Below, one piece after another: positions 13,742 through 46,036 of a DNA stretch of 64,000 nt. Source of the stretch: a virus. Under the pieces are notes generated by a model that was given only the letters and a program-made list of their open reading frames with translations, did not search any database and was not told the origin of the DNA. Made by a program: the position numbers and the translations under genes. Each line of letters opens with the position of its first letter. The first letter of the stretch is position 1. The stretch spans positions 1 through 64,000 of the IMG/VR virus record IMGVR_UViG_3300027791_000007; one strand, 5' to 3'.

Positions 13742-14353
13742 TCAACAACCTATGGATTTAGGATCGTCATCATATAACATAGAGTCTTGATATCCATTTG
13801 GAATAGTACTTTCTGGTTTTGTAAACTTAAAACTAATGTTACCAGCAACAACTATTCTTTCATTCTCTGATTCACTCTTAGGAACAGAATGTTTTATATT
13901 ACTTGGAAAGATAATCAAGTCACCTATCTCTGGTTCAAAAACTTGTTTGACTTCTGGAAAGACAAGTGGTGGTGAAGTCTTATCTACTTTACTATAGTAA
14001 CACCAAGACCATAAAAATGGCCAATGTGTATGTTCAACAACTTCTTCTGACCATCTTTGAACATTTCCCCAACACTCACTATTATGTAATTCAAACTTAC
14101 CAGACATCTTCTCGCACTCTATCATAACGAGGTTTGTAAGTCCTTTAACACAATCATCTTGTTCGTGTAGATACCAACTTGTCATAGTTGCTTTTACATT
14201 TGATAAATGTTTATCATCCGTTGCATGTTTACGAACGGCTTCTTGTATATGTGTATTCTCTACCTTGTCTAAAACATTAAGATGCACAAGAGGTACACGA
14301 ACACTTGCATCGAACATACTACTAGAACTTTTTAATATATCCGTTAAGCCCAT
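13742..14353 (-). CDS. putative 2OG-Fe(II) oxygenase
   Basis: HTH...IIFPSNIKHSV...ERIVVAGN double-stranded beta-helix motif. Confidence 0.8.
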   Translation of the reverse strand: MGLTDILKSSSSMFDASVRVPLVHLNVLDKVENTHIQEAVRKHATDDKHLSNVKATMTSWYLHEQDDCVKGLTNLVMIECEKMSGKFELHNSECWGNVQRWSEEVVEHTHWPFLWSWCYYSKVDKTSPPLVFPEVKQVFEPEIGDLIIFPSNIKHSVPKSESENERIVVAGNISFKFTKPESTIPNGYQDSMLYDDDPKSIGC

Positions 14354-15408
14354 TCTTCCGTCCTCTTCTCTTTTAGTAAATTTATTTTTTTATTACAGAC
14401 ACGATAACATACTCTACATGGTTTGTCAACCCAAGATTCTTTTAGTTTAGTAAACCACTGATTAGTCATGACTTTTGTTGCACCATATTTTATTGCATCA
14501 TGTGAATCATCTTTTAGTATCTCACCTATAAGTCCATCTTCCTCAACTGGATACGATGGTTTGAAATAAGTATCTTTGGTTCTCCATCTGTGTATTGAAG
14601 CACCAACCCAACAACAAGGAACTATCTCACCAGTGTAGTTTACAAATATCTCTTCATAATCATCTTGTAAAGCTTTACACGATATGTCTAGGTTCTCTGG
14701 CGGCCAAGGTATTGTAGAAAGGTTTGGCATCTCCTTTGTTGTTGTCTCTTCTAATTTATGATCCACCCCATCTAACTTATATTTTTTGTATCCTTTACCA
14801 TTGTGAAATCTTGTGGTATACACAGAAATAAATTTTTTGAATCCATACTCTTCCGATAATCTCTTTGCTTCTTCTAGTTGATGTTCATTATGTTTGAACA
14901 CTAGGAAAGACCATTCTGCATTACCACCAGCAGATATAAATGATTTTGCATTTCGTATAATCTTATCGTAGTTTGTTCTATGTCTATACAATGCATGTGT
15001 AATATTATCTGTACCATCTAGTGCAAACACAACTCTACGATTTTTGTTATTAAACATACTTCCGAAATGATACCACCATTCTTCTGTCTTTAAACTTCCG
15101 TTAGTAGTAACATTAAGTATTATCTTTGGATTATTAAATATGAAGAACTCTACAATCTCATGTAAATCTTTAGTTGCGATAGGGTCAGAATAGTTTCCGA
15201 CAAATCTTACATTTGATATTTGGTGTGTATTCCAGAACTCATCATCAAAGATTCTTTCTATATCTTCAAGTCTAAGTTCTGTAGTTTGCATACCAGCCTG
15301 TAATCTTAATTCACCATTAGCAGAAGTGTTTCTACCACACTGTGGACACATGGCATTACACTTGTTAGATAATTCTATATGAACCTTTAAAGGTTTTCCG
15401 CTATACAT
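14344..15408 (-). CDS. radical SAM protein with C-terminal SPASM/twitch domain
   Basis: CNAMCPQC; GNYSDP; TNGS; C-terminal C...GEIVPCC...CRVCYRVC. Confidence 0.9.
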   Translation of the reverse strand: MYSGKPLKVHIELSNKCNAMCPQCGRNTSANGELRLQAGMQTTELRLEDIERIFDDEFWNTHQISNVRFVGNYSDPIATKDLHEIVEFFIFNNPKIILNVTTNGSLKTEEWWYHFGSMFNNKNRRVVFALDGTDNITHALYRHRTNYDKIIRNAKSFISAGGNAEWSFLVFKHNEHQLEEAKRLSEEYGFKKFISVYTTRFHNGKGYKKYKLDGVDHKLEETTTKEMPNLSTIPWPPENLDISCKALQDDYEEIFVNYTGEIVPCCWVGASIHRWRTKDTYFKPSYPVEEDGLIGEILKDDSHDAIKYGATKVMTNQWFTKLKESWVDKPCRVCYRVCNKKINLLKEKRTEEWA

Positions 15409-18404: not shown

Positions 18405-19181
18405 TTACCCATTCGTTTCCGCTAACACGGGTTTTAGTCTATTCTCTCTCATGAAATCTTCTACTCTTATAGTGGGTCTCCAACCTATACTCTTCATGAT
18501 ACTGATGTCAGCAAGGGTCGTATGTCTCTCATATGCCATCTCTGGGTACTCTTCTATTGTATGGCATGGTAGGTCTGGGCGTATATCTTGTATTGATATG
18601 TTAGTGCCTGTACCTATGTCTACTACTCCCTTGATATGGTGATGTTTTATGAGTTTCTTTATAGCACTGCATATATCGTTTACATGTATGAAGTCTCTTC
18701 TGTGATTTGTTGTATATGTTAGTTCATTGTTTATTAATTTATCAAATAGCATACCCTTTCTAGGCGTGCTACTATATACGGTGTGAAACCTCATGAATAC
18801 TACGTTCTTATGTGGTATTGATTCTGCTACATACTTACTCCCAGCATATGGATTTAAAGCAGGTTCATACGCTGTGCTGCTTGATGCAACTAAGCATCTT
18901 ATGTTCTTATAATGTTCTAATATACGTTGTGTTCCTATGACGTTTGTTTTCCAATAGTCAGCAGGTCGATTCATTGACTCTCTTACACCTCCTATACCAG
19001 CAAGATGAATCACCATGTCTATATTGCTTGGCAATTCTGCTCTCGTAATACATTGATGGTCGGTAACTTGATTAGGTGTAGGTCTGTGTATATCTAGTCC
19101 AGAGAGTACATGGTCGTCTCTCAGCGCATCCGTGAGTGCCGTTCCGATGAAACCCTTATGTCCAGTGATAAGTATGTTCAT
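18405..19181 (-). CDS. NAD-dependent epimerase/dehydratase
   Basis: ILITGHKGFIG, VIHLA, ASSS, YAGSK, RDFIHVND. Confidence 0.9.
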   Translation of the reverse strand: MNILITGHKGFIGTALTDALRDDHVLSGLDIHRPTPNQVTDHQCITRAELPSNIDMVIHLAGIGGVRESMNRPADYWKTNVIGTQRILEHYKNIRCLVASSSTAYEPALNPYAGSKYVAESIPHKNVVFMRFHTVYSSTPRKGMLFDKLINNELTYTTNHRRDFIHVNDICSAIKKLIKHHHIKGVVDIGTGTNISIQDIRPDLPCHTIEEYPEMAYERHTTLADISIMKSIGWRPTIRVEDFMRENRLKPVLAETNG

Positions 19182-20660: not shown

Positions 20661-20757
20661 TTTCTCTCTCTTTGTTTCAACTCATCTTACTTATACAATG
20701 TATCAGGCTTTTAGGGCAATGTCAAGTGTTATTTTAAATCGTTGATAATACAGCGTT
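20661..20757 (-). promoter_or_regulatory. early promoter cassette (TTGACA at 20720-20725) with conserved upstream motif and repeated leader
   Basis: Leader TTGTTTCAACTCATCTTACTTA (20672-20693) recurs exactly at 30973-30994; upstream AATCGTTG-N7-AGCGTT. Confidence 0.7.
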
Positions 20758-20759
20758 TT

Positions 20760-21836
20760 TTAGTAGTTATATTTATCCAATATGGACACTTTACGCTTAC
20801 CGATTCGCTTTGATTCGGACAGTTGTTTCTGTATATGGTACATAACCTCTGGTTGCATCTGTTTTCGTGTCTTATCGTCCTTATATCGTGTACATTTGTT
20901 GTCTGCTACACAAGAACAGCGTATCTTTGTGCATGTCACAAAATTCCTGGGCAGCGTAATCTTCTTGTCCTCTATATTTGCATAAGAACCACCTATCTTA
21001 CATACTCCTCGTTGTATGTTGCCGTATTGATCTATCTGACACCCTTCTAACCCTATACCACACAACCAACCGTTGAAATCGTCCTCTTGTCGTGTAATCA
21101 TATTGTTTGCCCACTCTTCCTTCGGTTCGTCTACCTCATTATAGTAGGCAAGCATGTCTGGTTGGTCAAATCTCTCACCAATCTCATCATATGATTGAGC
21201 ATGTTCTCGTTCCTCTAACCACTGTATCTGCTCTGGTGTATAGAATGGGTCGTACTTACGATTGTCCGAATCCCATGTGCTCTTGGTTCGTATTCTCTTT
21301 ATGTGGTGGTTTATCTGTCCTTTTTCACAAAATTCTACAATGTTCTGTACTGTATCCCAATACTCGGGCTCTGCCATAAGATTGACACTAAACTTCTTTA
21401 ATGGTAATGCAGATAGGACATCCTTAAATTTGTCTAACTTTAGAAACCCAAAATGTGAACTAAACTGTATCTTCTCTACCCACTCCGACAACTCTTTATA
21501 ATACTTTGGTAGTCTAGAACCATTACTGTTCAACCCCAGATTTCTTGCTCTTTCTGGGTATTCTGTTTTCAACCACTTGACAAACGGCAGAAAGTTTGGA
21601 TTGATTGTTGGTTCACCACCAGTAAACCATATCTTGATATCCAGATTACTTGGTATCTCTGGTTCAATCTTTCTAAAGATTTCTTGGAAACTTTCTAGAC
21701 TACGATGTTTTGATGTATAGTCATGTAGATTGTCTGGGCAATAAGCACAATCGTAATTACATCTCTTACCCACATTCCAGTGAATTGTAAAGAAGTGTTG
21801 TGGTCTATTGCTTTGGGTGGTTATTCTAAAATTCAT
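20760..21836 (-). CDS. radical SAM protein with Cys-rich C-terminal domain
   Basis: CNYDCAYC, FTGGEPT, SNGSR; C-terminal CGIG...C...CTKIRCSCVAD. Confidence 0.9.
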   Translation of the reverse strand: MNFRITTQSNRPQHFFTIHWNVGKRCNYDCAYCPDNLHDYTSKHRSLESFQEIFRKIEPEIPSNLDIKIWFTGGEPTINPNFLPFVKWLKTEYPERARNLGLNSNGSRLPKYYKELSEWVEKIQFSSHFGFLKLDKFKDVLSALPLKKFSVNLMAEPEYWDTVQNIVEFCEKGQINHHIKRIRTKSTWDSDNRKYDPFYTPEQIQWLEEREHAQSYDEIGERFDQPDMLAYYNEVDEPKEEWANNMITRQEDDFNGWLCGIGLEGCQIDQYGNIQRGVCKIGGSYANIEDKKITLPRNFVTCTKIRCSCVADNKCTRYKDDKTRKQMQPEVMYHIQKQLSESKRIGKRKVSILDKYNY

Positions 21837-22545
21837 ATGTCCATCGCCACACAACTCTTTGTGGATTATCCTCTTCGTGTATACCTCTTACTTTTGCTCT
21901 GTATTGTAGAGCCTTTCTCTGTATATTATAATGTTTGCGAGTCATCTTCCTCATATCCGTAGTGCCGACACCATCAATTGTAGTTTTTAGTGCAAACTCT
22001 TTCCCCAACCTAGTGATACGTTCTTCTGTCCATGTTATGTCACCATGTGCTACAATTGTGCCTGATGGTTTTAGTAGATGTACCCCTTGTGCAATTATTG
22101 ATCTGTGTGTATCCTCATCTGTTGGCCCCCAAGGCCCAAGGATTAATACCCAATCAGCAATATTGGGTTTAAATATGTCCACTGCATCTTGTATTGGTCT
22201 AACTAGGTCTGATGTGGGGAATTTTACCAAGTCCATACCAATAAGATTCGGTATGATACCCTTGAATGGATTAGCACCACAACCAAGGTCAATGACTAAC
22301 TCTGGATTAGTTGATGCTATCTCTTCTGCAAGTCCTCTTCCACTTAGTGACCTATACAATGGTAGGTTTTGTCTAATACTTTTCTCTATATCACCACTAA
22401 ATCTTTCCTCCAGAATTTCGTGGGCGTCTGGTTGTCCATATTTGATAAGTCTATTCTTTGCTCTACTATACCATTGTTCTCTGTCCTCTTTTCTCATCAT
22501 CCAGAGCATCCAATCGTAGTATCGTTTTGGTTCTCTATCTTCCAT
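21826..22545 (-). CDS. class I SAM-dependent methyltransferase
   Basis: VIDLGCGANPFK motif I; paralog of 50393-51076. Confidence 0.8.
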   Translation of the reverse strand: MEDREPKRYYDWMLWMMRKEDREQWYSRAKNRLIKYGQPDAHEILEERFSGDIEKSIRQNLPLYRSLSGRGLAEEIASTNPELVIDLGCGANPFKGIIPNLIGMDLVKFPTSDLVRPIQDAVDIFKPNIADWVLILGPWGPTDEDTHRSIIAQGVHLLKPSGTIVAHGDITWTEERITRLGKEFALKTTIDGVGTTDMRKMTRKHYNIQRKALQYRAKVRGIHEEDNPQRVVWRWTYEF

Positions 22546-23797
22546 GAAATAAATCCTTTAATCGTAACATATTATTATCTATGCTATCCCAATTAGGGCG
22601 TTTTGGTCTAAGTCTGTCTTTAAGTTCTGTATCATCTTTGAGTTGAGCCCATTGCACTTCTTTTGGCATACCAGTTTCCCCATTCGTTATGTGTTTAATA
22701 GCATCCTTTGATATTTTATCACCACCCTCTAGATAGTCTACTGCCCGTTGTATTGTATCATCTGGTAGAAATCTTACGTTTTGACATTTGGGTCTATACA
22801 CAAAGTTTGAGTGTAAATTTATTAAATCTTTTCTACCCTCTTCACGGGCCCACTTTTCAAACTCTCTTATATTAAACAAATTAAACACACTTACAGTAAA
22901 TTGATATGATATGGATATGTCTGAAGCAAACAACAACAATTGTTTAGTGTTTCTTGTCCATTGTTCCCAAGTGTGTGGATATCTTATATAATTATAATTG
23001 GCATCAGTTCCATCCACCGATAAATTAATCTTGGCACTTTTAAACTGACACATTTTTTCGTAGATGTCTGTGCCTTTGTATGTGCCGTTTGTAGTTAGTG
23101 AAAGTTCTATATGAGCTGAATGTCCAGTTTCTAACATGTAGTCCATCACCTCATGTACTTGTGGAATCAATGTTGGTTCACCACCAGTAAACTTTAATGT
23201 TCTTATGTGTTCTGCATTTGACTTTAACTTATCATAAAAAGCAGGGTTTTGCCACCATTGTAATTCATCTGTAAACCCTGCTTTTTTATAGTCTGCCCAT
23301 ATTTTCTCTTTTTTCTCTTTACGGTTTCCTGCTTTATGCCACCATCCCTCTTTATAATTGTTCCACTTTTCTTTTGCAATAAGAGAACTAGATGCAGCTT
23401 CACACATATTGCACATTAGATTACACTTACTACCAAGTTTTAAGTCTACATACGACCATTCATGTTCAGTTACAAGGTCATTCTCTAATCTTTCATTAGA
23501 ACCTAGTCTCATACTTTGTATACCAGCTGCTTCTTGATCCCAACATTTATCACACCTTGGGTCTTTTATACCATTGTCTAAGTTGTCTCTTAGTGATTTC
23601 CACCAATCTGTTTCCCCATGATTTTCATTCCACATTGGTGGATCGCCAAACGTCACATTCCGAATGGGTGAAGTTCCTGCCTCCTTCTGACTTCTCATGA
23701 ATATAGTACAACAAGGTTTATTCAGTCCATCTGTAGACATACATATCCCACCATGTGCATAAACACACAGCGTGTTTTTTTTGTTAGCATCAATCAC
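22535..23797 (-). CDS. radical SAM protein with N-terminal twitch domain
   Basis: N-terminal C...PCC...CxxC, then CNLMCNMC, FTGGEPT, TTNGT, SVDG. Likely GTG start overlapping the thyX stop. Confidence 0.9.
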   Translation of the reverse strand: MIDANKKNTLCVYAHGGICMSTDGLNKPCCTIFMRSQKEAGTSPIRNVTFGDPPMWNENHGETDWWKSLRDNLDNGIKDPRCDKCWDQEAAGIQSMRLGSNERLENDLVTEHEWSYVDLKLGSKCNLMCNMCEAASSSLIAKEKWNNYKEGWWHKAGNRKEKKEKIWADYKKAGFTDELQWWQNPAFYDKLKSNAEHIRTLKFTGGEPTLIPQVHEVMDYMLETGHSAHIELSLTTNGTYKGTDIYEKMCQFKSAKINLSVDGTDANYNYIRYPHTWEQWTRNTKQLLLFASDISISYQFTVSVFNLFNIREFEKWAREEGRKDLINLHSNFVYRPKCQNVRFLPDDTIQRAVDYLEGGDKISKDAIKHITNGETGMPKEVQWAQLKDDTELKDRLRPKRPNWDSIDNNMLRLKDLFHGR

Positions 23798-24401
23798 GAA
23801 GCGCCGTCCAACTAATAGGAAAAAGTTCTTTTGCAGCATCGTCAATCATCTGTGCAATTTGTTGTGTTTCCCTCTGTGTATCTGGTTTACATCTTAGATT
23901 ACATACACGGGCAAATGCCATAAGTGTACCACTCCAATACCACTCCGTGTATAAATTCTGTGGTAATATCATTCTTGCCATCTCTGGTGCAACATTTGCT
24001 TTCAATAGATTGTTGTATGTTTGTGCCACAAATTGGACAGCACCATCAATATTGTATTCTATAGTTTCATCTGATGAACCTTGTTTTTTGTCATCTGCTT
24101 TAAGTCTCCATTCATTAGGAATGTAAAACTCTGGTTCATCATCTACATAACGTCTACTGACTTCGTTCCACACCAAACCGACTTGGTGTTTCACAAGTTG
24201 TCTTGCAACAAAGATTGGTGCCTTAATTCTGAATTGCATTGATGCATGTCCAAAAGGACTCCAGTGATTGTGTTTTGCAAGAAAATTGATGAGTTTCTCA
24301 TCTCCTTTAGAAAACTCTGTACTCTCTTTTGCGAAAGATACACGAGCTGCATTTACTACTGATAGGTCTGTTCCCATCATATCTATTATTTCTACGTTCA
24401 T
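23790..24401 (-). CDS. thyX: FAD-dependent thymidylate synthase
   Basis: VVNAARVS, HWSPF, APIFVARQLVKH, NEVSRRYV, EMARMILPQ. Confidence 0.95.
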   Translation of the reverse strand: MNVEIIDMMGTDLSVVNAARVSFAKESTEFSKGDEKLINFLAKHNHWSPFGHASMQFRIKAPIFVARQLVKHQVGLVWNEVSRRYVDDEPEFYIPNEWRLKADDKKQGSSDETIEYNIDGAVQFVAQTYNNLLKANVAPEMARMILPQNLYTEWYWSGTLMAFARVCNLRCKPDTQRETQQIAQMIDDAAKELFPISWTALRD

Positions 24402-24489
24402 AAACTTAATCCTCTAAAAACTAACCATAAATTATATGTGCATAGTATAAGTGTTAGTGCTATTGCTATTGGTGCCGCCCATTTATATA

Positions 24490-24612
24490 TCATAACCACC
24501 CCATCGCTAGTTTAGTATCATACGGCACCATCTCCATATTGAATGGTGGATCAAAAGTACAGTTTACTATACAATCTTTTGCACCAGTTTCATTTTTTTC
24601 TTCTGGCGTCAT
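24490..24612 (-). pseudogene. internally deleted DUF59/SufT (Fe-S assembly) remnant, 40 aa
   Basis: MTPEEKNETGAKDCIVNCTFDPPFNMEMVPYDTKLAMGWL; keeps the DUF59 C-terminal TFDPP...LG motif but lacks the DPE/LGL/CP core. Confidence 0.55.
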
Positions 24613-25550
24613 TCATCCCTCACTTGTAGTGTTTCTGTGTTACCATCGTCAATTATATTAATGTACTTGTTCAAGTCAACTTCTTTCAGTACTTTCAACT
24701 TAGTAACAGTGAACTTAGAATTACTGTCTGATACAACATCACCAGCATTAAACTCTACCATAAATAGATGCCAATTAGGTTTTGCCCCAAGTGCCATCCA
24801 CTCTTTCAACACCCATGTCAATGGTGCAAGTGCTATGCCTGGATTCTTTGTTGCATCAATAGGTGAAGCACCACCTCTTGTAGCATCATATATCTTACCC
24901 ACTTCATATACCATATGTGGGCGATAGATACCACGCTTTCCTTCACCCAATAGTTTCCAACTAATACACTTATAGTCTGGTGGCATCTGATCGTATGCCT
25001 CCTTCTGACTTCTCATGAATCTTGGTATGCCAGTCGTCTTGTGTAATAGTGCTGAACGCCAATCACAATTAGTAAATCTAGCGCCTGTCCATACAGTTCC
25101 ACGCCCATTTATGTCACGAAAGTCTGATTTTCTACAATCTGAACCACTAAAATCTACATACTGTAGTCTGGCACCATAGAAGTTTACACTTCGCATCATA
25201 CAATCTTTGATTACACCACCACTCATGTTTACATGACTCATATTTGCATGTCTCATATTACAGTTGATAAATTGTGTTCCCTTTAGTTTAGCGCCTGTAA
25301 AGTCTGCATCTCTTAGATGTCCAAACTCAAATATACAGCCTGATAGGTCTGCATCCCTAAAACTACAGTTGTCAAAATACACATCCTTGATTACCTTATC
25401 ATGCATAACAAGATTGTCAAAATCTAAGTTCAAGAAGTCTGGATTGTCTCTGCCTGTCAAGATATCTGCATCAACGCCCTTACCACCCTCTAGAAGTTCT
25501 ACTAGTGTCTCATCATATATCTTTACACCCTCAAGATTGTATATCATCAA
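24609..25550 (-). CDS. pentapeptide-repeat protein with C-terminal globular domain (paralog 1)
   Basis: A(D/N)(L/F)xx repeats (ADLSG, ADFTG, ANMSH); C-terminal WKL...GIY.P..YEVG...GIALAPL.WVL.EW. Confidence 0.88.
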   Translation of the reverse strand: MMIYNLEGVKIYDETLVELLEGGKGVDADILTGRDNPDFLNLDFDNLVMHDKVIKDVYFDNCSFRDADLSGCIFEFGHLRDADFTGAKLKGTQFINCNMRHANMSHVNMSGGVIKDCMMRSVNFYGARLQYVDFSGSDCRKSDFRDINGRGTVWTGARFTNCDWRSALLHKTTGIPRFMRSQKEAYDQMPPDYKCISWKLLGEGKRGIYRPHMVYEVGKIYDATRGGASPIDATKNPGIALAPLTWVLKEWMALGAKPNWHLFMVEFNAGDVVSDSNSKFTVTKLKVLKEVDLNKYINIIDDGNTETLQVRDE

Positions 25551-26793
25551 ATATTCTCCTCAAACCAAACGTATCTATTGAATCATAGTTAGGTCGTTTT
25601 ACTCTTAATTTATCTTTTATTAATGTGTCTTGTTTTAACTTTTGCATTACTTCATTCTTCTCTTCTATAGATATATATGGTCTAGATTCGATGAAGTTAA
25701 TTGCAGTTGTAGTCATCTTAGGATACTTCTTTTGTCCTTCTTTTAAATATACTAATGCCTTTTCTAATACATCATCTGGTAGATATCTTACGTTGTGGTG
25801 TCTAGGCCAAAACACTGGGTGTAATGAATATCCCCCTCTATAACTTTTGCAACCACCAACTTCGTGAAACCATTTTGACATCTCTACGATGTTAAACAGA
25901 TTAAATGCACTCATTGTAAATTGGTAGTTTAATTTTATTTCACCTTTATACAGTTGTAGTAGTTTTATATTTTGTTGCCACTTTTCCCACGAATGTGGAT
26001 ACCTTATATAATTATAGTTAGCACCAGTGCCATCTACACTCATTCGTATTTGTGATGAACGAAAGTTTAACATATCTTCCCATAGTTTTAGACTTTTGTT
26101 TGTTCCATTTGTAGTAATTCGTATGTGAATGTGTTTAGCATGTCCAGACTTAACCATCCAATCCATGACCTCATGGACTTGTGGTATTACAGTAGGTTCT
26201 CCACCAGTAAATTTTAGTGTTCTTATGTGTTCTGCATTTGACTTTAACTTATCATAAAAAGCAGGGTCTTCATACCACTGTTTCTTCTCTGTAAAACCAC
26301 CCAACTCATAATACTTCCGTGTCTGTTTTTTAAACTCCTCATGGTGTGCTGGAAACATTCCTTCCTCTAATTCTCCAGGCCATTGTTCGTCCATATTATC
26401 GTACATTTCTTTTGCAATTAGTGAACTAGATGGAGATTTACACATTGAACACATCAAGTTACATTTACTACCAAGTTTTAAGTCTACATACGACCAAGGG
26501 TGTATGTTTACTTTATCCTCTTCTTGAAATTCATTACCACAAAGTCTCATACTTTGTATACCAGATGCTTCTAAATCCCAGCACTTTACACACCTTGAGT
26601 CTTTTATACCATTGTCTAAGTTGTCTCTTAGTGATGTCCACCATTGAGATTCATTGTGATCTTCACTCCAATGTGGTTTTTCACCTTCACCTTTTTTTAT
26701 TTGACAACACGGTTTCGTGTATCCATTTGTGGATATACTCATACCACCATGTGCAAAAATACATTTTGTGTTATCTTTGGTGGTGGTTATCAT
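25531..26793 (-). CDS. radical SAM protein with N-terminal twitch domain
   Basis: CNLMCSMC, FTGGEPT, TTNGT; close paralog of 22535-23797. Confidence 0.9.
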   Translation of the reverse strand: MITTTKDNTKCIFAHGGMSISTNGYTKPCCQIKKGEGEKPHWSEDHNESQWWTSLRDNLDNGIKDSRCVKCWDLEASGIQSMRLCGNEFQEEDKVNIHPWSYVDLKLGSKCNLMCSMCKSPSSSLIAKEMYDNMDEQWPGELEEGMFPAHHEEFKKQTRKYYELGGFTEKKQWYEDPAFYDKLKSNAEHIRTLKFTGGEPTVIPQVHEVMDWMVKSGHAKHIHIRITTNGTNKSLKLWEDMLNFRSSQIRMSVDGTGANYNYIRYPHSWEKWQQNIKLLQLYKGEIKLNYQFTMSAFNLFNIVEMSKWFHEVGGCKSYRGGYSLHPVFWPRHHNVRYLPDDVLEKALVYLKEGQKKYPKMTTTAINFIESRPYISIEEKNEVMQKLKQDTLIKDKLRVKRPNYDSIDTFGLRRIFDDIQS

Positions 26794-27812
26794 TGCCCGA
26801 TATCTTTTCCTTGATGAAATGCGGCTGTTCCACCAGTGTGATAATCAATATCCTCATTCAACAAATCATAGAACTCTTTCATGTCAATTTTTTTGAGACA
26901 TTTCATCTTTCTGACATTGAACTTTGAATTACCCTCTGCACGACATATAATACGATTGTGTACATGAGTTTGTATGACATCTTTGTATTTGTAGGACACC
27001 AGAAACAGCTGGTAATCTGGATATGCACCAAGTAAATTCCATTCTCTCAATACCCAATTGAGTGGTGCTAGTGCAATGCCTGAATTGTATTTTGGATCGA
27101 TTGGGATTCTCACATCTGAATCATCTTGTATCTCTGCATCAAACTCTTTACCCTCTGCATATGTAATCTTGGGATGATAAATGCCCTTACCATTAGCGGC
27201 TGCGAGTTTGTAAGCATAACCCACTGACTCTGGATCAAGAACTTCATTACTACCTACCTCATTCCAAAAGAAATGTGGTAAGTCTCCACCAGCATGTGTG
27301 AATTGTGTGTCTCTTGTGTTCATACCTCTTAATTTATTAGACTTCCATGTGGTATTTGAAAACTTTGCACCCCTAAGATTTGCTTTTCGTAAATCACTTC
27401 CTTCAAAGTGTGCATACTTAAACCATGAACCTTGCATGTTCATATTCACCATATTACACGCCACAAACTTAGAACCATTACCAAAACATTGTGTCATGTT
27501 TGCTTCTCTTGCAACACAATTGATAAATGATACACCTTCCAATACTGACCTATGAAAGTTCACACTCCGTAAACCACATTTGAAGAATGTTGCGCCTGTA
27601 AAATCACTATATGCAAAGTCTGTGTCATCAAACACCAATCCATCAAAAAACATCCCACGATAATCTCTTTTGGTTAGGTTTAGATTGTTAAATTTTCTTA
27701 GTCCATCCCCTGCTTGTCTATTGTGTTGTGACATCGGTAATTTATCTTTATCTTTTAGAAGTTCTGGCAAATCTTCTTCATACCTTAATAAACCTTGTTT
27801 ACTGTATATCAA
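26790..27812 (-). CDS. pentapeptide-repeat protein (paralog 2)
   Basis: SDFTG/ANMTQ/SDLRK/ANLRG repeats; same C-terminal domain. Confidence 0.88.
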   Translation of the reverse strand: MIYSKQGLLRYEEDLPELLKDKDKLPMSQHNRQAGDGLRKFNNLNLTKRDYRGMFFDGLVFDDTDFAYSDFTGATFFKCGLRSVNFHRSVLEGVSFINCVAREANMTQCFGNGSKFVACNMVNMNMQGSWFKYAHFEGSDLRKANLRGAKFSNTTWKSNKLRGMNTRDTQFTHAGGDLPHFFWNEVGSNEVLDPESVGYAYKLAAANGKGIYHPKITYAEGKEFDAEIQDDSDVRIPIDPKYNSGIALAPLNWVLREWNLLGAYPDYQLFLVSYKYKDVIQTHVHNRIICRAEGNSKFNVRKMKCLKKIDMKEFYDLLNEDIDYHTGGTAAFHQGKDIGQ

Positions 27813-28660
27813 TCTTTCATCTCCTCATAAAATTTTGCAATAGGATATTCTTTTTCAACTTTCATCTTTTTAACATTAAACTTTGCAATACCTTCTGCAT
27901 TTATTACATCGCCTGCTTTAAAAGAAACAAGAAATAGTTTCCAAAAAGGATTAGCACCCAACATATTCCATTCTTTTAATACCCAATCAATAGGTGCAAC
28001 AGCGATACCAGTGTTCATACTTCCACCACGACCATCTGCTTCTGTTTTAAGTTCTTTGAATCCAGTTTCTTGTTGTTCTGCATCTGCTTCCAAACCCACA
28101 TAATATTTTATCTTTGGATGATATATACCATAACCATCTTGTTGTGTAAGTTTCCATGCATAACAAATAGTATCGGGCTCCATTATCTTATATTGATAAG
28201 TGTAATTGATCATCCAATCATGTATTTTCGCATGTTCTAGATGTGTTCCTCGCATCGCTACACCCTTCAACCAACAATTTGTAAAATCTGCATGTGGAAA
28301 TCTAGCGTTACGAAAGTTAGACATTCTTAAATCTGTGTCGGTAAAATCAACTCTGTGACCCTCAACGCCTGTAAAGTCACATCTAACCATCATATTGTCT
28401 GTAAGTACGGCATCTCTAAGAATTGCATTTACAAGCCTACTCTCTCGTAAATTACAATCATGCATTGTAACACCAACCATGTTTGCGCCTGTAAAGTCGC
28501 AACCCCTCATGTATATATTCTTAAATGTGCTACCAGATAGGTTAGCACCCACAAAAGAACATTTATCAAAGTCCTGCCCTTGCTGATTGGGTTTTGACAC
28601 AAATACTTGATTAGATAAATCTTTACCATCAAAGTTTCTATTTTTAGGGAATAAATTCAT
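27809..28660 (-). CDS. pentapeptide-repeat protein (paralog 3)
   Basis: ANLSG/CDFTG/AILRD/ADFTN repeats; same C-terminal domain; probable start MNLFPK overlapping the upstream stop. Confidence 0.88.
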   Translation of the reverse strand: MNLFPKNRNFDGKDLSNQVFVSKPNQQGQDFDKCSFVGANLSGSTFKNIYMRGCDFTGANMVGVTMHDCNLRESRLVNAILRDAVLTDNMMVRCDFTGVEGHRVDFTDTDLRMSNFRNARFPHADFTNCWLKGVAMRGTHLEHAKIHDWMINYTYQYKIMEPDTICYAWKLTQQDGYGIYHPKIKYYVGLEADAEQQETGFKELKTEADGRGGSMNTGIAVAPIDWVLKEWNMLGANPFWKLFLVSFKAGDVINAEGIAKFNVKKMKVEKEYPIAKFYEEMKD

Positions 28661-29223
28661 TAGTCCATCTTTCCTTCCTCTGGGAATAACCACCAGCCTG
28701 TTGATATGTATTTAGAATGTTTATACACTGGATTGCCACGATGTTGCCATGGAAAGGCTGCTGGAAAGATTGCCATCATTCCCCTTTTGGGCTGTATCTT
28801 GATATCCTCTAATAAAAATTGTGTCTCACCCTCACCCTCATCAATATCGTTTAGATATATTGTCCAAGTTAATACTCTGCGAATGTTTTTATAGTGAGAT
28901 ATTTCCGAATGGAAATTATGAAAACCACCACCTTGTGTGGCAGTTTTTTGTATTTTTGTTTCTTCTGATATTAGTTTCTTTGCTCCCTTATACACATAAG
29001 GAAACTCATCTAGGTACATGTCTAGAGTACTCCTCTTGACTTGTTCTATCTTATTGTACAGATGAGTACCCACTGGCACCCACTTCTGCAAATCTTTTCT
29101 AGTATCTCTATTAGCAGTTACAGTTTTAGATTCCGTATCTTCACGAAACCAATGTAGCATTTCCTTGACTAGTTCATGGTCTGCTGCATTTGTGTAACAT
29201 CGACAAAAATCACTTAGGTTCAT
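28660..29223 (-). CDS. 2OG-Fe(II) oxygenase (prolyl-4-hydroxylase-like)
   Basis: GGFHNFHSE...YLND...GETQF...IFPA.FPWQHRGNP...KYISTGW. Confidence 0.9.
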   Translation of the reverse strand: MNLSDFCRCYTNAADHELVKEMLHWFREDTESKTVTANRDTRKDLQKWVPVGTHLYNKIEQVKRSTLDMYLDEFPYVYKGAKKLISEETKIQKTATQGGGFHNFHSEISHYKNIRRVLTWTIYLNDIDEGEGETQFLLEDIKIQPKRGMMAIFPAAFPWQHRGNPVYKHSKYISTGWWLFPEEGKMD

Positions 29224-29432
29224 TTTGCTTTTAGAGTATCTATAATTGCCTTTGACAACTCATCAAAACTTCTCATGTCATTAATCTCGTTGTTTAATTC
29301 ACTTATCTCATTGTAGATAGCGTCTTGTGTCGCTTTCATATCTACTACTGCTTTCTCTATGGTGATGAAAGCACCACCCACAGTAGCGATAATAATCATC
29401 AATAAAGATATTACTATTGTTTTATATATCAT
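29220..29432 (-). CDS. small membrane-anchored coiled-coil protein
   Basis: N-terminal TM helix followed by heptads. Confidence 0.6.
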   Translation of the reverse strand: MIYKTIVISLLMIIIATVGGAFITIEKAVVDMKATQDAIYNEISELNNEINDMRSFDELSKAIIDTLKAK

Positions 29433-29725
29433 ATTTTACTCCATCCAGCATTATCACACTTGTATTTAGTTGTACCGATAAGAACCATATCTCCAACCAT
29501 AGTGCTTCTACAAGCTTTACCATCAAACATTTTTTCTACGTTAGTGTTTTCCCACCAACCACAATCAATATTATTTGTCAACATAAATGCTTCTTCTAAT
29601 TTATCTTCATCAGTCTTTTCTTTATCAACATAAACAAAAGCAACTACTGTATTGTCATGGATGACGCTCACTCTTTCAAGCTTGCTCTTTTCATAGTTTT
29701 CTAACAGTGCATCAATTTTTGTCAC
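29429..29725 (-). CDS. conserved phage early protein
   Basis: LEEAFMLTNNID..W...RSTMVGD...GW motif; follows TTGACA promoter at about 29774-29779. Confidence 0.7.
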   Translation of the reverse strand: MTKIDALLENYEKSKLERVSVIHDNTVVAFVYVDKEKTDEDKLEEAFMLTNNIDCGWWENTNVEKMFDGKACRSTMVGDMVLIGTTKYKCDNAGWSKI

Positions 29726-29940
29726 ATACTTATCCTCTCAATTAAGATTAATATTAACACATAGGAGGGCTGTTGTCAAGTAAAAAATGAAAAATGTTTG
29801 TATTTAGTGGTGGATATCACCCATTTTTCATCTCGAAAGCACCAAAGCTTTACCAATCCACTCTCCTCTTGTGTTTACCCCCCTTTTGAACGAGTCTTAC
29901 TCTGCTTCTTAGGCCACGTTTGTGTGGGGGGGCCGACCTT

Positions 29941-31020: not shown

Positions 31021-31551
31021 AGTCAACCCCCTTTCTGTAATCGTTGCTCACTAAGGGTTACAGAGACTTGTGTATTTTAAAGATTTTAGGATTATTGCGA
31101 ATCGGGCGAATCACCCTATTCATACTAGTTAAATGCAATCAACATTAACAACAGACTATTCAATGAGAATCCTATTGCATTTGATACGATATACAATGTA
31201 TCCTTAGCATATATTGCTCTTATAAGGAATAGAAACAATCCTAACCATACGAGGAATATAAAGTTCAATGGTGGTAGATCAGTTGACCAACCCATTAATA
31301 CTGATACTGATGTAGGAGCAGTCGCACCATGAATAAGTATCATACCTATCCACCCACAAGCCTCACTCATCTTGTTTGATTTAATCTTTTTAGTTTTCAT
31401 AATAAATCCTTTCTTTCTCAATTTATACCTTATTATACCAAGTATTAATCGAAAAGTCAAGGGCCCTTCTGTAATCGTTGCTGACTATACGTTACAGAGA
31501 ATATGAATTTATGATGTTTTGTTGTTTATGAAAGAGTTGCGAATCACCCTA
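31021..31551 (-). repeat. duplicated about 100-nt promoter-associated element (31021-31118 and 31455-31551)
   Basis: Both copies have AGTCAA (-35), CTGTAATCGTTGCT..ACTA..GTTACAGAGA and GCGAATCACCCTA. Confidence 0.75.
31125..31400 (-). CDS. small 3-TM membrane protein, SemiSWEET/PQ-loop-like
   Basis: GWIG...P...LVWLGLFLFLI.AI..KD.LYIVSNAIG; three hydrophobic helices. Confidence 0.5.
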   Translation of the reverse strand: MKTKKIKSNKMSEACGWIGMILIHGATAPTSVSVLMGWSTDLPPLNFIFLVWLGLFLFLIRAIYAKDTLYIVSNAIGFSLNSLLLMLIAFN

Positions 31552-44842: not shown

Positions 44843-46036
44843 TTAATTTAATATTTTGTAATATTTTTCCCACTCTGGTACATGATCTAATAGACAAGTT
44901 CCTCTTGCTTTGTCTCTAGATTTAACGTGGCTCATGAGTGCGATTGTACCGTTGTGATCCCACTCAGCCTGTTCTAAAAATCTAATTACTTTTTTTACTT
45001 CATCGTGCTTTCCATTTTGATATAGTGTATCCAGATAACAATCTCTTACCTCTGGTGGTATTGATTCAATTCTGTATACATTGTTAACTACTGGACTAAA
45101 ATTGATATAATGAAACTCTTCACACAACTGATGAACCTTTCCAGCATTTAGTGCATTTATAGTTGCGGCCATGTATGTCTGAATATGTGGAGATTTTTGT
45201 AGTTTCTTTATGTTAACATTTACTACATCCCAATCTGAAAGGTATCTAATATAATTATTAAAGTCACCTACACCATCAACTGAAACATTCACTATAACTC
45301 TACGAAACCTTTTTGTCTCCTCTATAAACCTATCTACATTCTGTGTACCATTTGTGATGACACGAACTATCTTTCTATCAGAAACTACAGACAATATATC
45401 ATAGATATTATTACCTATGAGTGGTTCGCCACCAGTAAACTTAATCTCTTCTGCATTTTCAATTATATGTTTCAAATCTTTATCAAACTGTGGATTAATC
45501 TTTGCTCGTTTAACCCTCTTTTTAGTTTCTCCTAGTTCAATTGCCTCTTTATTAAATTGAGATGAATTACCAGATGAACAAAAGTTACACCGTAAGTTAC
45601 ATATATTTCCTCTTACACCATTCACAATAGCAGTATGCCAAAATGTAGGTTTAGAATCTGTCTCAATTATTTTTTCTAATTCTTCTTTCTTATGGGCAAA
45701 TTCATTTTGATCATTAAACCTAGATAGGTAAAACTGTCTGTGAGAGCGAGAACCAGCTTTTTCTTGTTTCTTACACACTCCACAAATATCGTTAATAAAT
45801 TCTTTATCATCATTATTCTTTAGTGCTGATCTCCATCTTACGTTTTGTGGGGCATTATAGTAGTCATCAAAAGTATCTCTAGAGGAATTAAAGGTTCTAA
45901 GATTGTACTTATCTTGCATATCTTTTTTATTAACAGCAGTCGTAGCACAACAACCTCGTATATCTCCAGGCGCCGAAAACATCAAATTAGTAAACGGTTC
46001 TGGACATATCCAATCGTATTCCTCTAGTTTCTTCAT
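44843..46036 (-). CDS. radical SAM protein with N-terminal twitch domain
   Basis: WICPEPF...GCC...CGVC; CNLRCNFC; FTGGEPL; TNGT; SVDG. Confidence 0.9.
   Translation of the reverse strand: MKKLEEYDWICPEPFTNLMFSAPGDIRGCCATTAVNKKDMQDKYNLRTFNSSRDTFDDYYNAPQNVRWRSALKNNDDKEFINDICGVCKKQEKAGSRSHRQFYLSRFNDQNEFAHKKEELEKIIETDSKPTFWHTAIVNGVRGNICNLRCNFCSSGNSSQFNKEAIELGETKKRVKRAKINPQFDKDLKHIIENAEEIKFTGGEPLIGNNIYDILSVVSDRKIVRVITNGTQNVDRFIEETKRFRRVIVNVSVDGVGDFNNYIRYLSDWDVVNVNIKKLQKSPHIQTYMAATINALNAGKVHQLCEEFHYINFSPVVNNVYRIESIPPEVRDCYLDTLYQNGKHDEVKKVIRFLEQAEWDHNGTIALMSHVKSRDKARGTCLLDHVPEWEKYYKILN

Follow-up and report, generated by a model that had tools for sequence, protein, structure and literature searches.

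Pentapeptide-repeat proteins with an rIIB-like C-terminal domain are encoded next to radical SAM enzymes, a methyltransferase and an oxygenase in an early gene run of a pelagimyophage-like virus

The rII genes of phage T4 belong to the most-studied phage genes, yet the mechanism of rIIB is unsolved (bioRxiv 10.1101/2023.05.28.542683). T4 rIIB is a protector from prophage-induced early lysis. It acts against RexAB, and a bacterial gasdermin system responds to it (PMC13716836; bioRxiv 10.1101/2023.05.28.542683). Here, a gene run is described that encodes three pentapeptide-repeat proteins (PRP1 to PRP3), each of which ends in a domain remotely related to T4 rIIB, together with radical S-adenosylmethionine (SAM) enzymes, a methyltransferase and an oxygenase. 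It is located on the minus strand at positions 20760-29223 of a stretch of 64,000 nucleotides, in the following called the window, which is the first 64 kb of the 148-kb IMG/VR virus record IMGVR_UViG_3300027791_000007 (estimated completeness 84%). The run is tentatively read, with somewhat less than even confidence, as an early accessory module, the enzymes of which modify, or act together with, rIIB-like PRP effectors; it is inferred that the PRPs would be the substrates and counter-defence the output. It was already known that this phage group carries multiple radical SAM and DUF59/PaaD genes. In the passages retrieved from PMC7029224 and PMC5332604, radical SAM and Fe-S genes are listed without function, and the cassettes described there resemble the present locus in the phage group, in the combination of several radical SAM genes with a DUF59/PaaD-type gene, and in the location in variable regions. 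The word "pentapeptide" is absent from the main text of PMC7029224, while PMC5332604 was not searched for it. The literature searches yielded no paper on PRP-rIIB fusions, on DUF7666, on the function or a characterized member of NF033640 (the family of two of the radical SAM enzymes), or on the combination of pentapeptide, radical SAM and phage.

The three PRPs are PRP1 (24609..25547, 312 amino acids (aa), open reading frame (ORF) to 25550), PRP2 (26790..27812, 340 aa) and PRP3 (27809..28660, 283 aa from an ATG, the longest ORF starting with a GTG at 28693), all encoded on the minus strand. They have the same two-domain architecture, with a common C-terminal domain of about 120 residues. With a profile of this domain 63 representative proteins were found among 1.8 billion. 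Pentapeptide repeats were present in 29 of the 48 proteins that were scanned, and DUF7666 in 4 of them. The fusion of pentapeptide repeats to this domain can thus be classified, on the basis of sequence, as a recurrent two-domain family, and the contexts examined look phage-like. PRP1 itself showed a weak match to DUF7666 (E 0.022). In VIA and Foldseek searches with the whole PRP3 model nearly all matches were beta-helices; because whole-protein searches were swamped in this way, the C-terminal domain was folded alone (AF2, pLDDT 86.7). The best viral matches of the domain-only model in BFVD were rIIB and DUF7666 proteins (E 6e-6 to 1e-4, TM 0.55-0.61). PHROG families annotated as "RIIB lysis inhibitor" were matched by 10 of 23 family members (best E 2.3e-10), including P0141 from locus L023, which is a true PRP fusion and links to the domain of the window at E 8.8e-9. 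An hhalign comparison of a broad profile with T4 rIIB yielded a probability of 86% and an E of 5e-6 for rIIB residues 206-305 of 312. Two results weigh against the relationship: a narrow profile of six sequences gave no significant hhalign result with T4 rIIB, and the window's own C-terminal domains had no match in a direct PHROG scan, so that the homology is undetectable with the window's own sequences alone. In summary, the C-terminal domain of the PRPs is regarded as a remote homolog of the C-terminal domain of T4 rIIB (DUF7666-like).

The similarity to T4 rIIB is confined to its C-terminal approximately 100 residues, with a shared YAWK strand and a shared G-[IL]-x-[VL] strand-helix, and like rIIB the PRPs are encoded by early accessory genes of a T4-type phage. 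In contrast, the N-terminal part is a helix-turn-helix in T4 rIIB and a pentapeptide beta-helix in the PRPs. Furthermore, searches with rIIA and phrog_609 revealed no rIIA partner and no canonical rIIB in the 148-kb record, which is 84% complete. Among PDB structures, the protein 2aua of unknown function was the first match of the domain model (Z 7.6). Nearly all matches below it had the ADP-ribosyltransferase fold (Arr, DarT, the catalytic domains of pertussis and diphtheria toxin, PARPs), but they were weak (Z 3.2-5.6), and the model comparison is thus a weak hint that the rIIB C-terminal domain may have an ADP-ribosyltransferase-like fold. The GIYHP motif was also considered as part of a GIY-YIG nuclease; this reading was rejected, since the spacing is wrong. 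In BFVD, a rIIB-C/DUF7666-like fold was also found at the C-terminus of proteins of giant viruses, namely of a moumouvirus (annotation ankyrin-repeat) and of Bodo saltans virus (annotation DUF4116), and these models suggest that a repeat scaffold joined to a rIIB-C domain might be a general design.

The original prediction had compared the PRPs with Qnr, MfpA, McbG and AlbG, which are DNA-mimicking beta-solenoids. The fold is indeed of this kind. The three PRPs scored 57-87 bits with PF00805 (cut-off 20.2), and the AF2 model of PRP3 (pLDDT 88.4) showed a canonical beta-helix plus an alpha/beta domain. Residues 1-153 of PRP3 could be superimposed on Np275/276 (2j8k) with a Z of 22.7 and a rmsd of 1.3 over 143 residues, and the right-handed quadrilateral beta-helix, which is of similar length as in Qnr, MfpA, AlbG and McbG, was structurally similar to Qnr, MfpA and AlbG with Z scores of 17-19. 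A functional similarity was not supported. With the NCBIfam models for Qnr and MfpA the PRPs scored only 26-43 bits, compared to cut-offs of 240-360 (best scores 42.6 versus 240 bits for Qnr and 38.5 versus 360 bits for MfpA). The repeat domains have a net charge of -3 to +4 and a pI of 5.9-8.9, which are sequence-level proxies for the surface and near-neutral to basic instead of acidic, and they are followed by the rIIB-like domain in place of the Qnr-type dimerisation end. A label as DNA mimics or gyrase protectors is therefore not supported, and this corrects a tempting designation of phage pentapeptide proteins of the PRP-rIIB type.

It had also been proposed that the enzymes of the run make a topoisomerase-poisoning peptide or metabolite, with the PRPs as immunity factors like McbG, AlbG or Qnr. 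Apart from the confirmed fold, the results spoke against this explanation, and it is very improbable. In addition to the low family scores, the missing acidity and the additional C-terminal domain, the PRP genes are situated in a phage early operon and not in a resistance or toxin cluster. Neither a precursor peptide nor a cyclodehydratase or a scaffold-building enzyme is encoded in the cluster. The enzyme sets of relatives vary too much for the synthesis of a single metabolite, the PRPs being paired with three methyltransferases only or with one radical SAM enzyme only. All scores of the cluster's radical SAM enzymes with peptide-maturase NCBIfam models were far under the cut-offs. No candidate for a precursor of a ribosomally synthesized and post-translationally modified peptide was found among the small ORFs, none of which matched a family above the cut-off (one had a weak match below it), in agreement with the original prediction, which had likewise been unable to name a precursor with confidence.

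A motif of about 20 residues (M-I-Y-x3-G-x3-Y-x-E-x-L-x-E-L-L) precedes the beta-helix in PRP1- and PRP2-type proteins, while it is absent from the PRP3 type. It is encoded at positions 25480-25547 (PRP1) and 27745-27812 (PRP2) of the window and is also present in the relatives in L112-L116. This shared motif could be a recognition tag.

The enzymes of the run belong to several families, and all are encoded on the minus strand. TwiB (25531..26793, 420 aa) and its paralog TwiA (22535..23797, 420 aa from a GTG, ORF to 23845) are 52% identical. The GTG start of TwiA agrees with the gene call in L021, which is also 420 aa long. Both proteins exceeded the cut-off of the family NF033640 (N_Twi_rSAM, 170 bits) over their full lengths, with 235 bits for TwiA and 234.5 bits for TwiB. 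In an alignment of 13 NF033640-type members the CxxxCxxC motif and the N-terminal, twitch-type cysteines (C...G-x4-CC...CxxC) were invariant or nearly so. A tblastn search of GenBank phages with TwiB and PRP3 resulted in distant matches or repeat-region matches only, and a sequence search of the PDB with TwiB had no match. A third radical SAM enzyme, rSAM_C (20760..21836, 358 aa, ORF to 21854), was matched by PF04055 with 38.8 bits; it has a CxxxCxxC motif and a C-terminal Cys-rich (SPASM/twitch-like) region, and shows weak similarity to MoaA and BtrN. The 187-aa oxygenase (28660..29223) was matched by PF13640 (2OG-FeII_Oxy_3) with 42.4 bits (cut-off 27) and by phrog_61 (E 4.8e-37). Its nearest solved structures are the bacterial prolyl 4-hydroxylases 3itq and 5hv0 (E 2.2e-5), and with the Pfam match and this similarity it can be classified as a prolyl-4-hydroxylase-like 2-oxoglutarate-Fe(II) enzyme. 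The 239-aa methyltransferase (21826..22545) had no Pfam match on its own, and a sequence search of the PDB gave nothing useful. An alignment of 13 family members revealed invariant D-x-GCG-x-N and LKPGG motifs, 9 of the 13 matched Methyltransf_11 (PF08241), and with the family profile class I SAM methyltransferases were retrieved from the PDB (best 5wp5, E 2.4e-9). The protein is thus classified by its profile as a class I SAM-dependent methyltransferase of a new, uncurated family.

For a comparative analysis, loci were gathered for the twitch-type radical SAM genes (77 loci, all viral) and for the PRP-rIIB domain (13 viral loci and 32 from metagenomes), and extra contigs were added through an exact-protein look-up. 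Across about 45 related loci the PRP-rIIB gene was the constant part, and genes of all three PRP subtypes have SAM enzymes directly downstream in some lineages. Twitch radical SAM genes directly follow the PRP gene in the clade of the window as well as in L111, L153 and L154; L154 has a PRP2 ortholog (72.5% identical) with three distant Twi genes around it. In L107 and L145-L147 the gene directly behind the PRP gene is an ortholog of rSAM_C (55% identical in L107 and L146). In L112-L114, L149, L150 and L156 the PRP gene is followed by two to three methyltransferase genes in tandem, which belong to the family found in the window and in some cases show 4-nt overlaps. In 17 representative architectures, SAM enzymes occupied 11 of the 43 positions +1 to +3 from the PRP gene, compared to 12 of the 189 other positions of these loci (odds ratio 5.1 in a Fisher test, p 7e-4). 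Directly upstream of the PRP gene, a prolyl-4-hydroxylase-like gene is present in the clade of the window and an Asp/Asn beta-hydroxylase gene (PF05118) in L014, L144 and L150. These two hydroxylase families are unrelated, and characterized members of both hydroxylate proteins. In L113 a GNAT acetyltransferase gene is located directly upstream of the PRP gene.

Several observations weigh against a functional link between the PRPs and these enzymes. The lineages in which the enrichment was calculated are related by descent, and CxxxCxxC is a crude proxy for "other radical SAM". A PRP domain was found within 10 kb in only 4 of the 77 viral Twi loci, the other 73 being devoid of it. One and the same PRP of 286 aa is accompanied by a Twi cassette in L111, L151 and L153 but not in L108, L109 and L152. 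The marine PRP3 orthologs in L010 and L014 (51-60% identical) are situated behind a TctA permease gene with no adjacent SAM enzyme, the PRP loci L022, L023 and L115 also have no SAM enzyme next to the PRP gene, and altogether adjacent SAM enzymes are missing from about half of the PRP lineages. The original prediction had suggested a neighbourhood analysis of PRPs and twitch radical SAM enzymes and had named their independent assortment as one of the results that would speak against it. The comparison gave a divided answer: the association of PRPs with SAM enzymes recurs in several divergent phage lineages, but it is not obligate, and most Twi loci and about half of the PRP lineages do without the other partner. 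Separately from this, a gene for a TctA-family permease (486-503 aa) was observed a short way upstream of PRP3-type genes in the marine relatives L010, L014, L141, L143, L144 and L148-L150, and TctA-like ORFs are also present in L113 and L114; a subunit of a tricarboxylate transporter is unexpected for a phage.

These patterns have to be weighed against mosaic co-location, i.e. the explanation that independent accessory genes have accumulated in a recombination-prone early island and that their adjacency reflects the common descent of the island. This is the main rival of the favoured reading and is possible, though somewhat unlikely. Besides the frequent occurrence of Twi genes without PRPs and the presence or absence of the Twi cassette beside the same PRP, it is favoured by the gene turnover in the clade of the window. 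PRP2 is missing in L001, L003 and L137, and thyX is missing at this position in L002, L133, L135 and L136; L133 and L135 also have a single Twi gene instead of two. The gain and loss of PRP2 and thyX occurred between relatives with neighbouring genes that are 98-100% identical. The DUF59 (SufT/PaaD-like) Fe-S assembly gene is represented in the window by a remnant of 40 aa (24490..24612, minus strand), which matches the last third of TIGR02945 (SUF-associated DUF59, positions 68-98 of 99, E 0.0011). An intact gene of 100 aa is found in the same neighbourhood of L108, L109 and L111, and L146 contains a piece that is 97% identical to the window's stub. Because they vary between near-identical relatives, thyX, PRP2 and the DUF59 stub are regarded as swappable passengers. 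The clade core "oxygenase-PRP3 ... PRP1-Twi-MT-rSAM_C" (MT, methyltransferase) is kept in all loci that extend far enough, several clade contigs stopping before the methyltransferase or the rSAM_C gene, and PRP1 orthologs with 80% identity precede Twi-MT-rSAM in L133, L135 and L158.

Also the TwiA alleles are more diverse (56-99% identity) than rSAM_C (88-99%) in one clade. In L133, L135, L136 and L158 the TwiA orthologs are 56-58% identical to that of the window, compared to about 80% for PRP1, 66% for the methyltransferase and 88-93% for rSAM_C, which suggests that the Twi gene may have undergone allele replacement within the clade. Co-location is furthermore in line with two reports, according to which radical SAM cassettes are swappable in variable regions of pelagimyophages (PMC7029224) and Fe-S-related gene sets are present in related T4-like genomes (PMC5332604). 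It does not explain well why SAM enzymes concentrate at positions +1 to +3 of the PRP genes inside the same islands, why three PRP subtypes repeatedly show the association, and this with three different families of enzymes, and why two unrelated hydroxylase families converge on position -1. If co-location were true, the locus would still be a clear example of cassette turnover in early islands of pelagimyophages. A further possible trace of exchange was noticed inside the run: an exact 25-nt direct repeat is present in TwiA (23678-23702) and in PRP1 (24996-25020) and encodes FMRSQKEA in both genes. The TwiA copy is part of an insertion that is missing from TwiB, and the repeat resembles the result of a gene conversion on a micro-scale, in which two genes are involved that are neighbours but unrelated.

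The phage itself, which is marine and uncultured, can be assigned to the pelagimyophage-like T4-type phages. Genes similar to the baseplate genes gp5, gp6 and gp7 are located at 1.7-12 kb of the window, and a tail-tube-cap-like gene and further tail genes at 32.6-36 kb. For the gp6 homolog, an identity of 47-51% was found to its counterparts in Methylophilales phage Melnitz and in the Pelagibacter phages Mosig and HTVC008M, compared to about 35% for the proteins of cyanomyophages. A megablast search of GenBank phages with the 8.5-kb region had no match. Since baseplate and tail genes flank it, the gene cluster is situated in a variable region of about 20 kb that splits the baseplate module. 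The late-promoter motif TATAAATA was not found between 13.7 and 33 kb, while near-consensus sigma-70-like promoters are present on the minus strand of the variable region at 31460, 29779, 24679, 20725 and 18266. This pattern is that of T4-type early genes. The promoter at the head of the run (29751..29779) has the form TTGACA-N17-TAATAT with a TG, a second promoter-like site is located near thyX (24652..24679), and the next sigma-70-like promoter (20697..20725) marks the downstream end of the unit.

The ten minus-strand ORFs between 20760 and 29223 were all recovered with the functions that had been named originally. The start of the run had to be revised, because two conserved small ORFs precede them behind the promoter at 29779. 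The first one encodes 98 aa (29429..29725) and overlaps by 4 nt with the second one, which encodes 70 aa (29220..29432), both on the minus strand. The former occupies a position that has a counterpart in relatives of the clade, where a 99-aa ORF (85 or 105 aa in some loci) is found before the oxygenase gene, matched by position only. The overlap of start and stop codons was verified for the junctions (1-17 nt, calculated from the likeliest start codons and not from the longest ORFs), except for a gap of 88 nt before thyX (23790..24401, minus strand), which is the sole intergenic gap. Judged from this arrangement, the gene run is a real and tightly coupled unit. Early regions of T4-type phages crowd unrelated genes with overlapping stops and starts, and the coupling is thus weak proof of a common function, which has to be added to the points against a functional link.

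According to the favoured reading, i.e. the modification of PRP-rIIB effectors, the run would be an accessory operon of the variable region inside the baseplate module, would be transcribed early and would express the PRP-rIIB protein family as its constant element, here with three paralogs. It would also express a SAM- and iron-dependent tailoring set, consisting of two N-terminal-twitch radical SAM enzymes, a MoaA/BtrN-like radical SAM enzyme, a class I methyltransferase and a prolyl-hydroxylase-like oxygenase. These enzymes would alter the PRP-rIIB proteins post-translationally by hydroxylation, methylation and radical chemistry, or, as an alternative for this step, the enzymes and the PRP-rIIB proteins might jointly act on one host target. 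The matured proteins could then serve as early effectors of host takeover or counter-defence, by analogy with rIIB. A shared substrate with exchangeable tailoring enzymes is proposed because the enzymes vary around a constant PRP-rIIB gene. A single fixed metabolite pathway is disfavoured because three methyltransferases alone cannot build a scaffold, and host takeover or counter-defence is proposed because of the early expression and the relationship to rIIB. Among the three options of the original prediction, namely a modified metabolite or peptide with PRPs as immunity factors, a modification of the PRPs themselves, and a modification of nucleotides or DNA, the second one appears to fit the comparative pattern best. 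A more specific version, in which a rIIB-type effector is matured by radical SAM chemistry, methyl transfer and hydroxylation, the beta-helix acts as a decorated repeat scaffold and the lineages swap the enzymes, is considered unlikely as a whole.

A precedent for such a set of enzymes is the maturation of proteusins (polytheonamide), in which radical SAM enzymes, a class I N-methyltransferase and a 2-oxoglutarate-dependent hydroxylase act on one substrate that forms a beta-helix. By analogy, the same enzyme classes are grouped here around a repeat-rich beta-helical polypeptide. Unlike the leader-bearing peptide of the proteusins, the candidate substrate would be a folded protein of about 300 aa, and the cluster has no B12-dependent radical SAM methyltransferase and no RRE-bearing epimerase, although no search was aimed at the RRE. 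The combination of a rIIB C-terminal domain on repeat scaffolds with SAM enzymes and protein hydroxylases repeatedly located beside it leads to a testable biochemical hypothesis for rIIB. The PRPs are also a candidate substrate for NF033640, a large family that is abundant in marine phages. The match to this family is clear for TwiA and TwiB, but most viral members are, unlike these two, found in radical SAM arrays without PRPs. If the modification of the PRPs were true, an enzyme-dependent maturation pathway would for the first time be linked to the rIIB domain, and the PRPs would be the first substrate for the N-terminal-twitch radical SAM family.

The enzymes might instead tailor a sugar or another small molecule, so that the Twi enzymes, rSAM_C and the methyltransferase would, together with an epimerase, edit a nucleotide-sugar or a metabolite and the PRPs would be bystanders or regulators. 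A gene for a nucleotide-sugar epimerase is indeed located nearby (18405-19181), L017, L020 and L022 have genes for an epimerase, a glycosyltransferase and a UDP-glucose dehydrogenase in the vicinity of Twi or PRP genes, rSAM_C is weakly BtrN-like, and the nearest solved relatives of the methyltransferase are small-molecule enzymes. However, no GT1, GT2 or GT8 glycosyltransferase was found in the 148-kb record, which is 84% complete, and the enzyme sets adjacent to PRPs vary too much for a single pathway. Taken together, this explanation is improbable. An observation on radical SAM genes of another context is that the marine metagenome contigs L028 and L029 contain seven of them in a row of 17 kb, together with a QueC-like gene and a nucleoside phosphorylase gene, and no PRP gene.

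The gene embedded in the run between the DUF59 remnant and TwiA had led to the proposal of nucleotide or DNA modification. It encodes an FAD-dependent thymidylate synthase, ThyX, which reached 145.7 bits with TIGR02170 (cut-off 87.9). At this equivalog level it is a canonical dTMP synthase, and a reading as a hydroxymethylase was set aside. Hypermodification of the phage DNA or nucleotides by ThyX, the radical SAM enzymes, the methyltransferase and the oxygenase could be derived from the position of thyX, from the distant Twi homolog among 7-deazaguanine genes in L026, and from a QueC gene about 10 kb from the PRP gene in L010. It is hardly probable at all, and the thyX-centred proposal is not supported, as near-identical relatives do not have thyX at this position and no match to TGT/DpdA or QueC was found in the 148-kb record, which is 84% complete. 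The Twi homolog in L026 and L027 (30% identity) is located beside genes for QueD, FolE, QueF, QueC, a YhhQ-type transporter, ThyX and a formyltransferase, and this context looks like one of 7-deazaguanine synthesis.

All three PRP genes of the 148-kb record are inside the cluster, while radical SAM genes are more widespread. The same variable region contains a second coupled pair on the minus strand (13742-15408), in which a radical SAM gene (14344-15408) overlaps with the gene for an oxygenase of the 2OG-FeII_Oxy_5 family (13742-14353). Further radical SAM genes are located at 44843-46036 of the window and at 66014-66505 of the 148-kb record, so that it encodes six of them.

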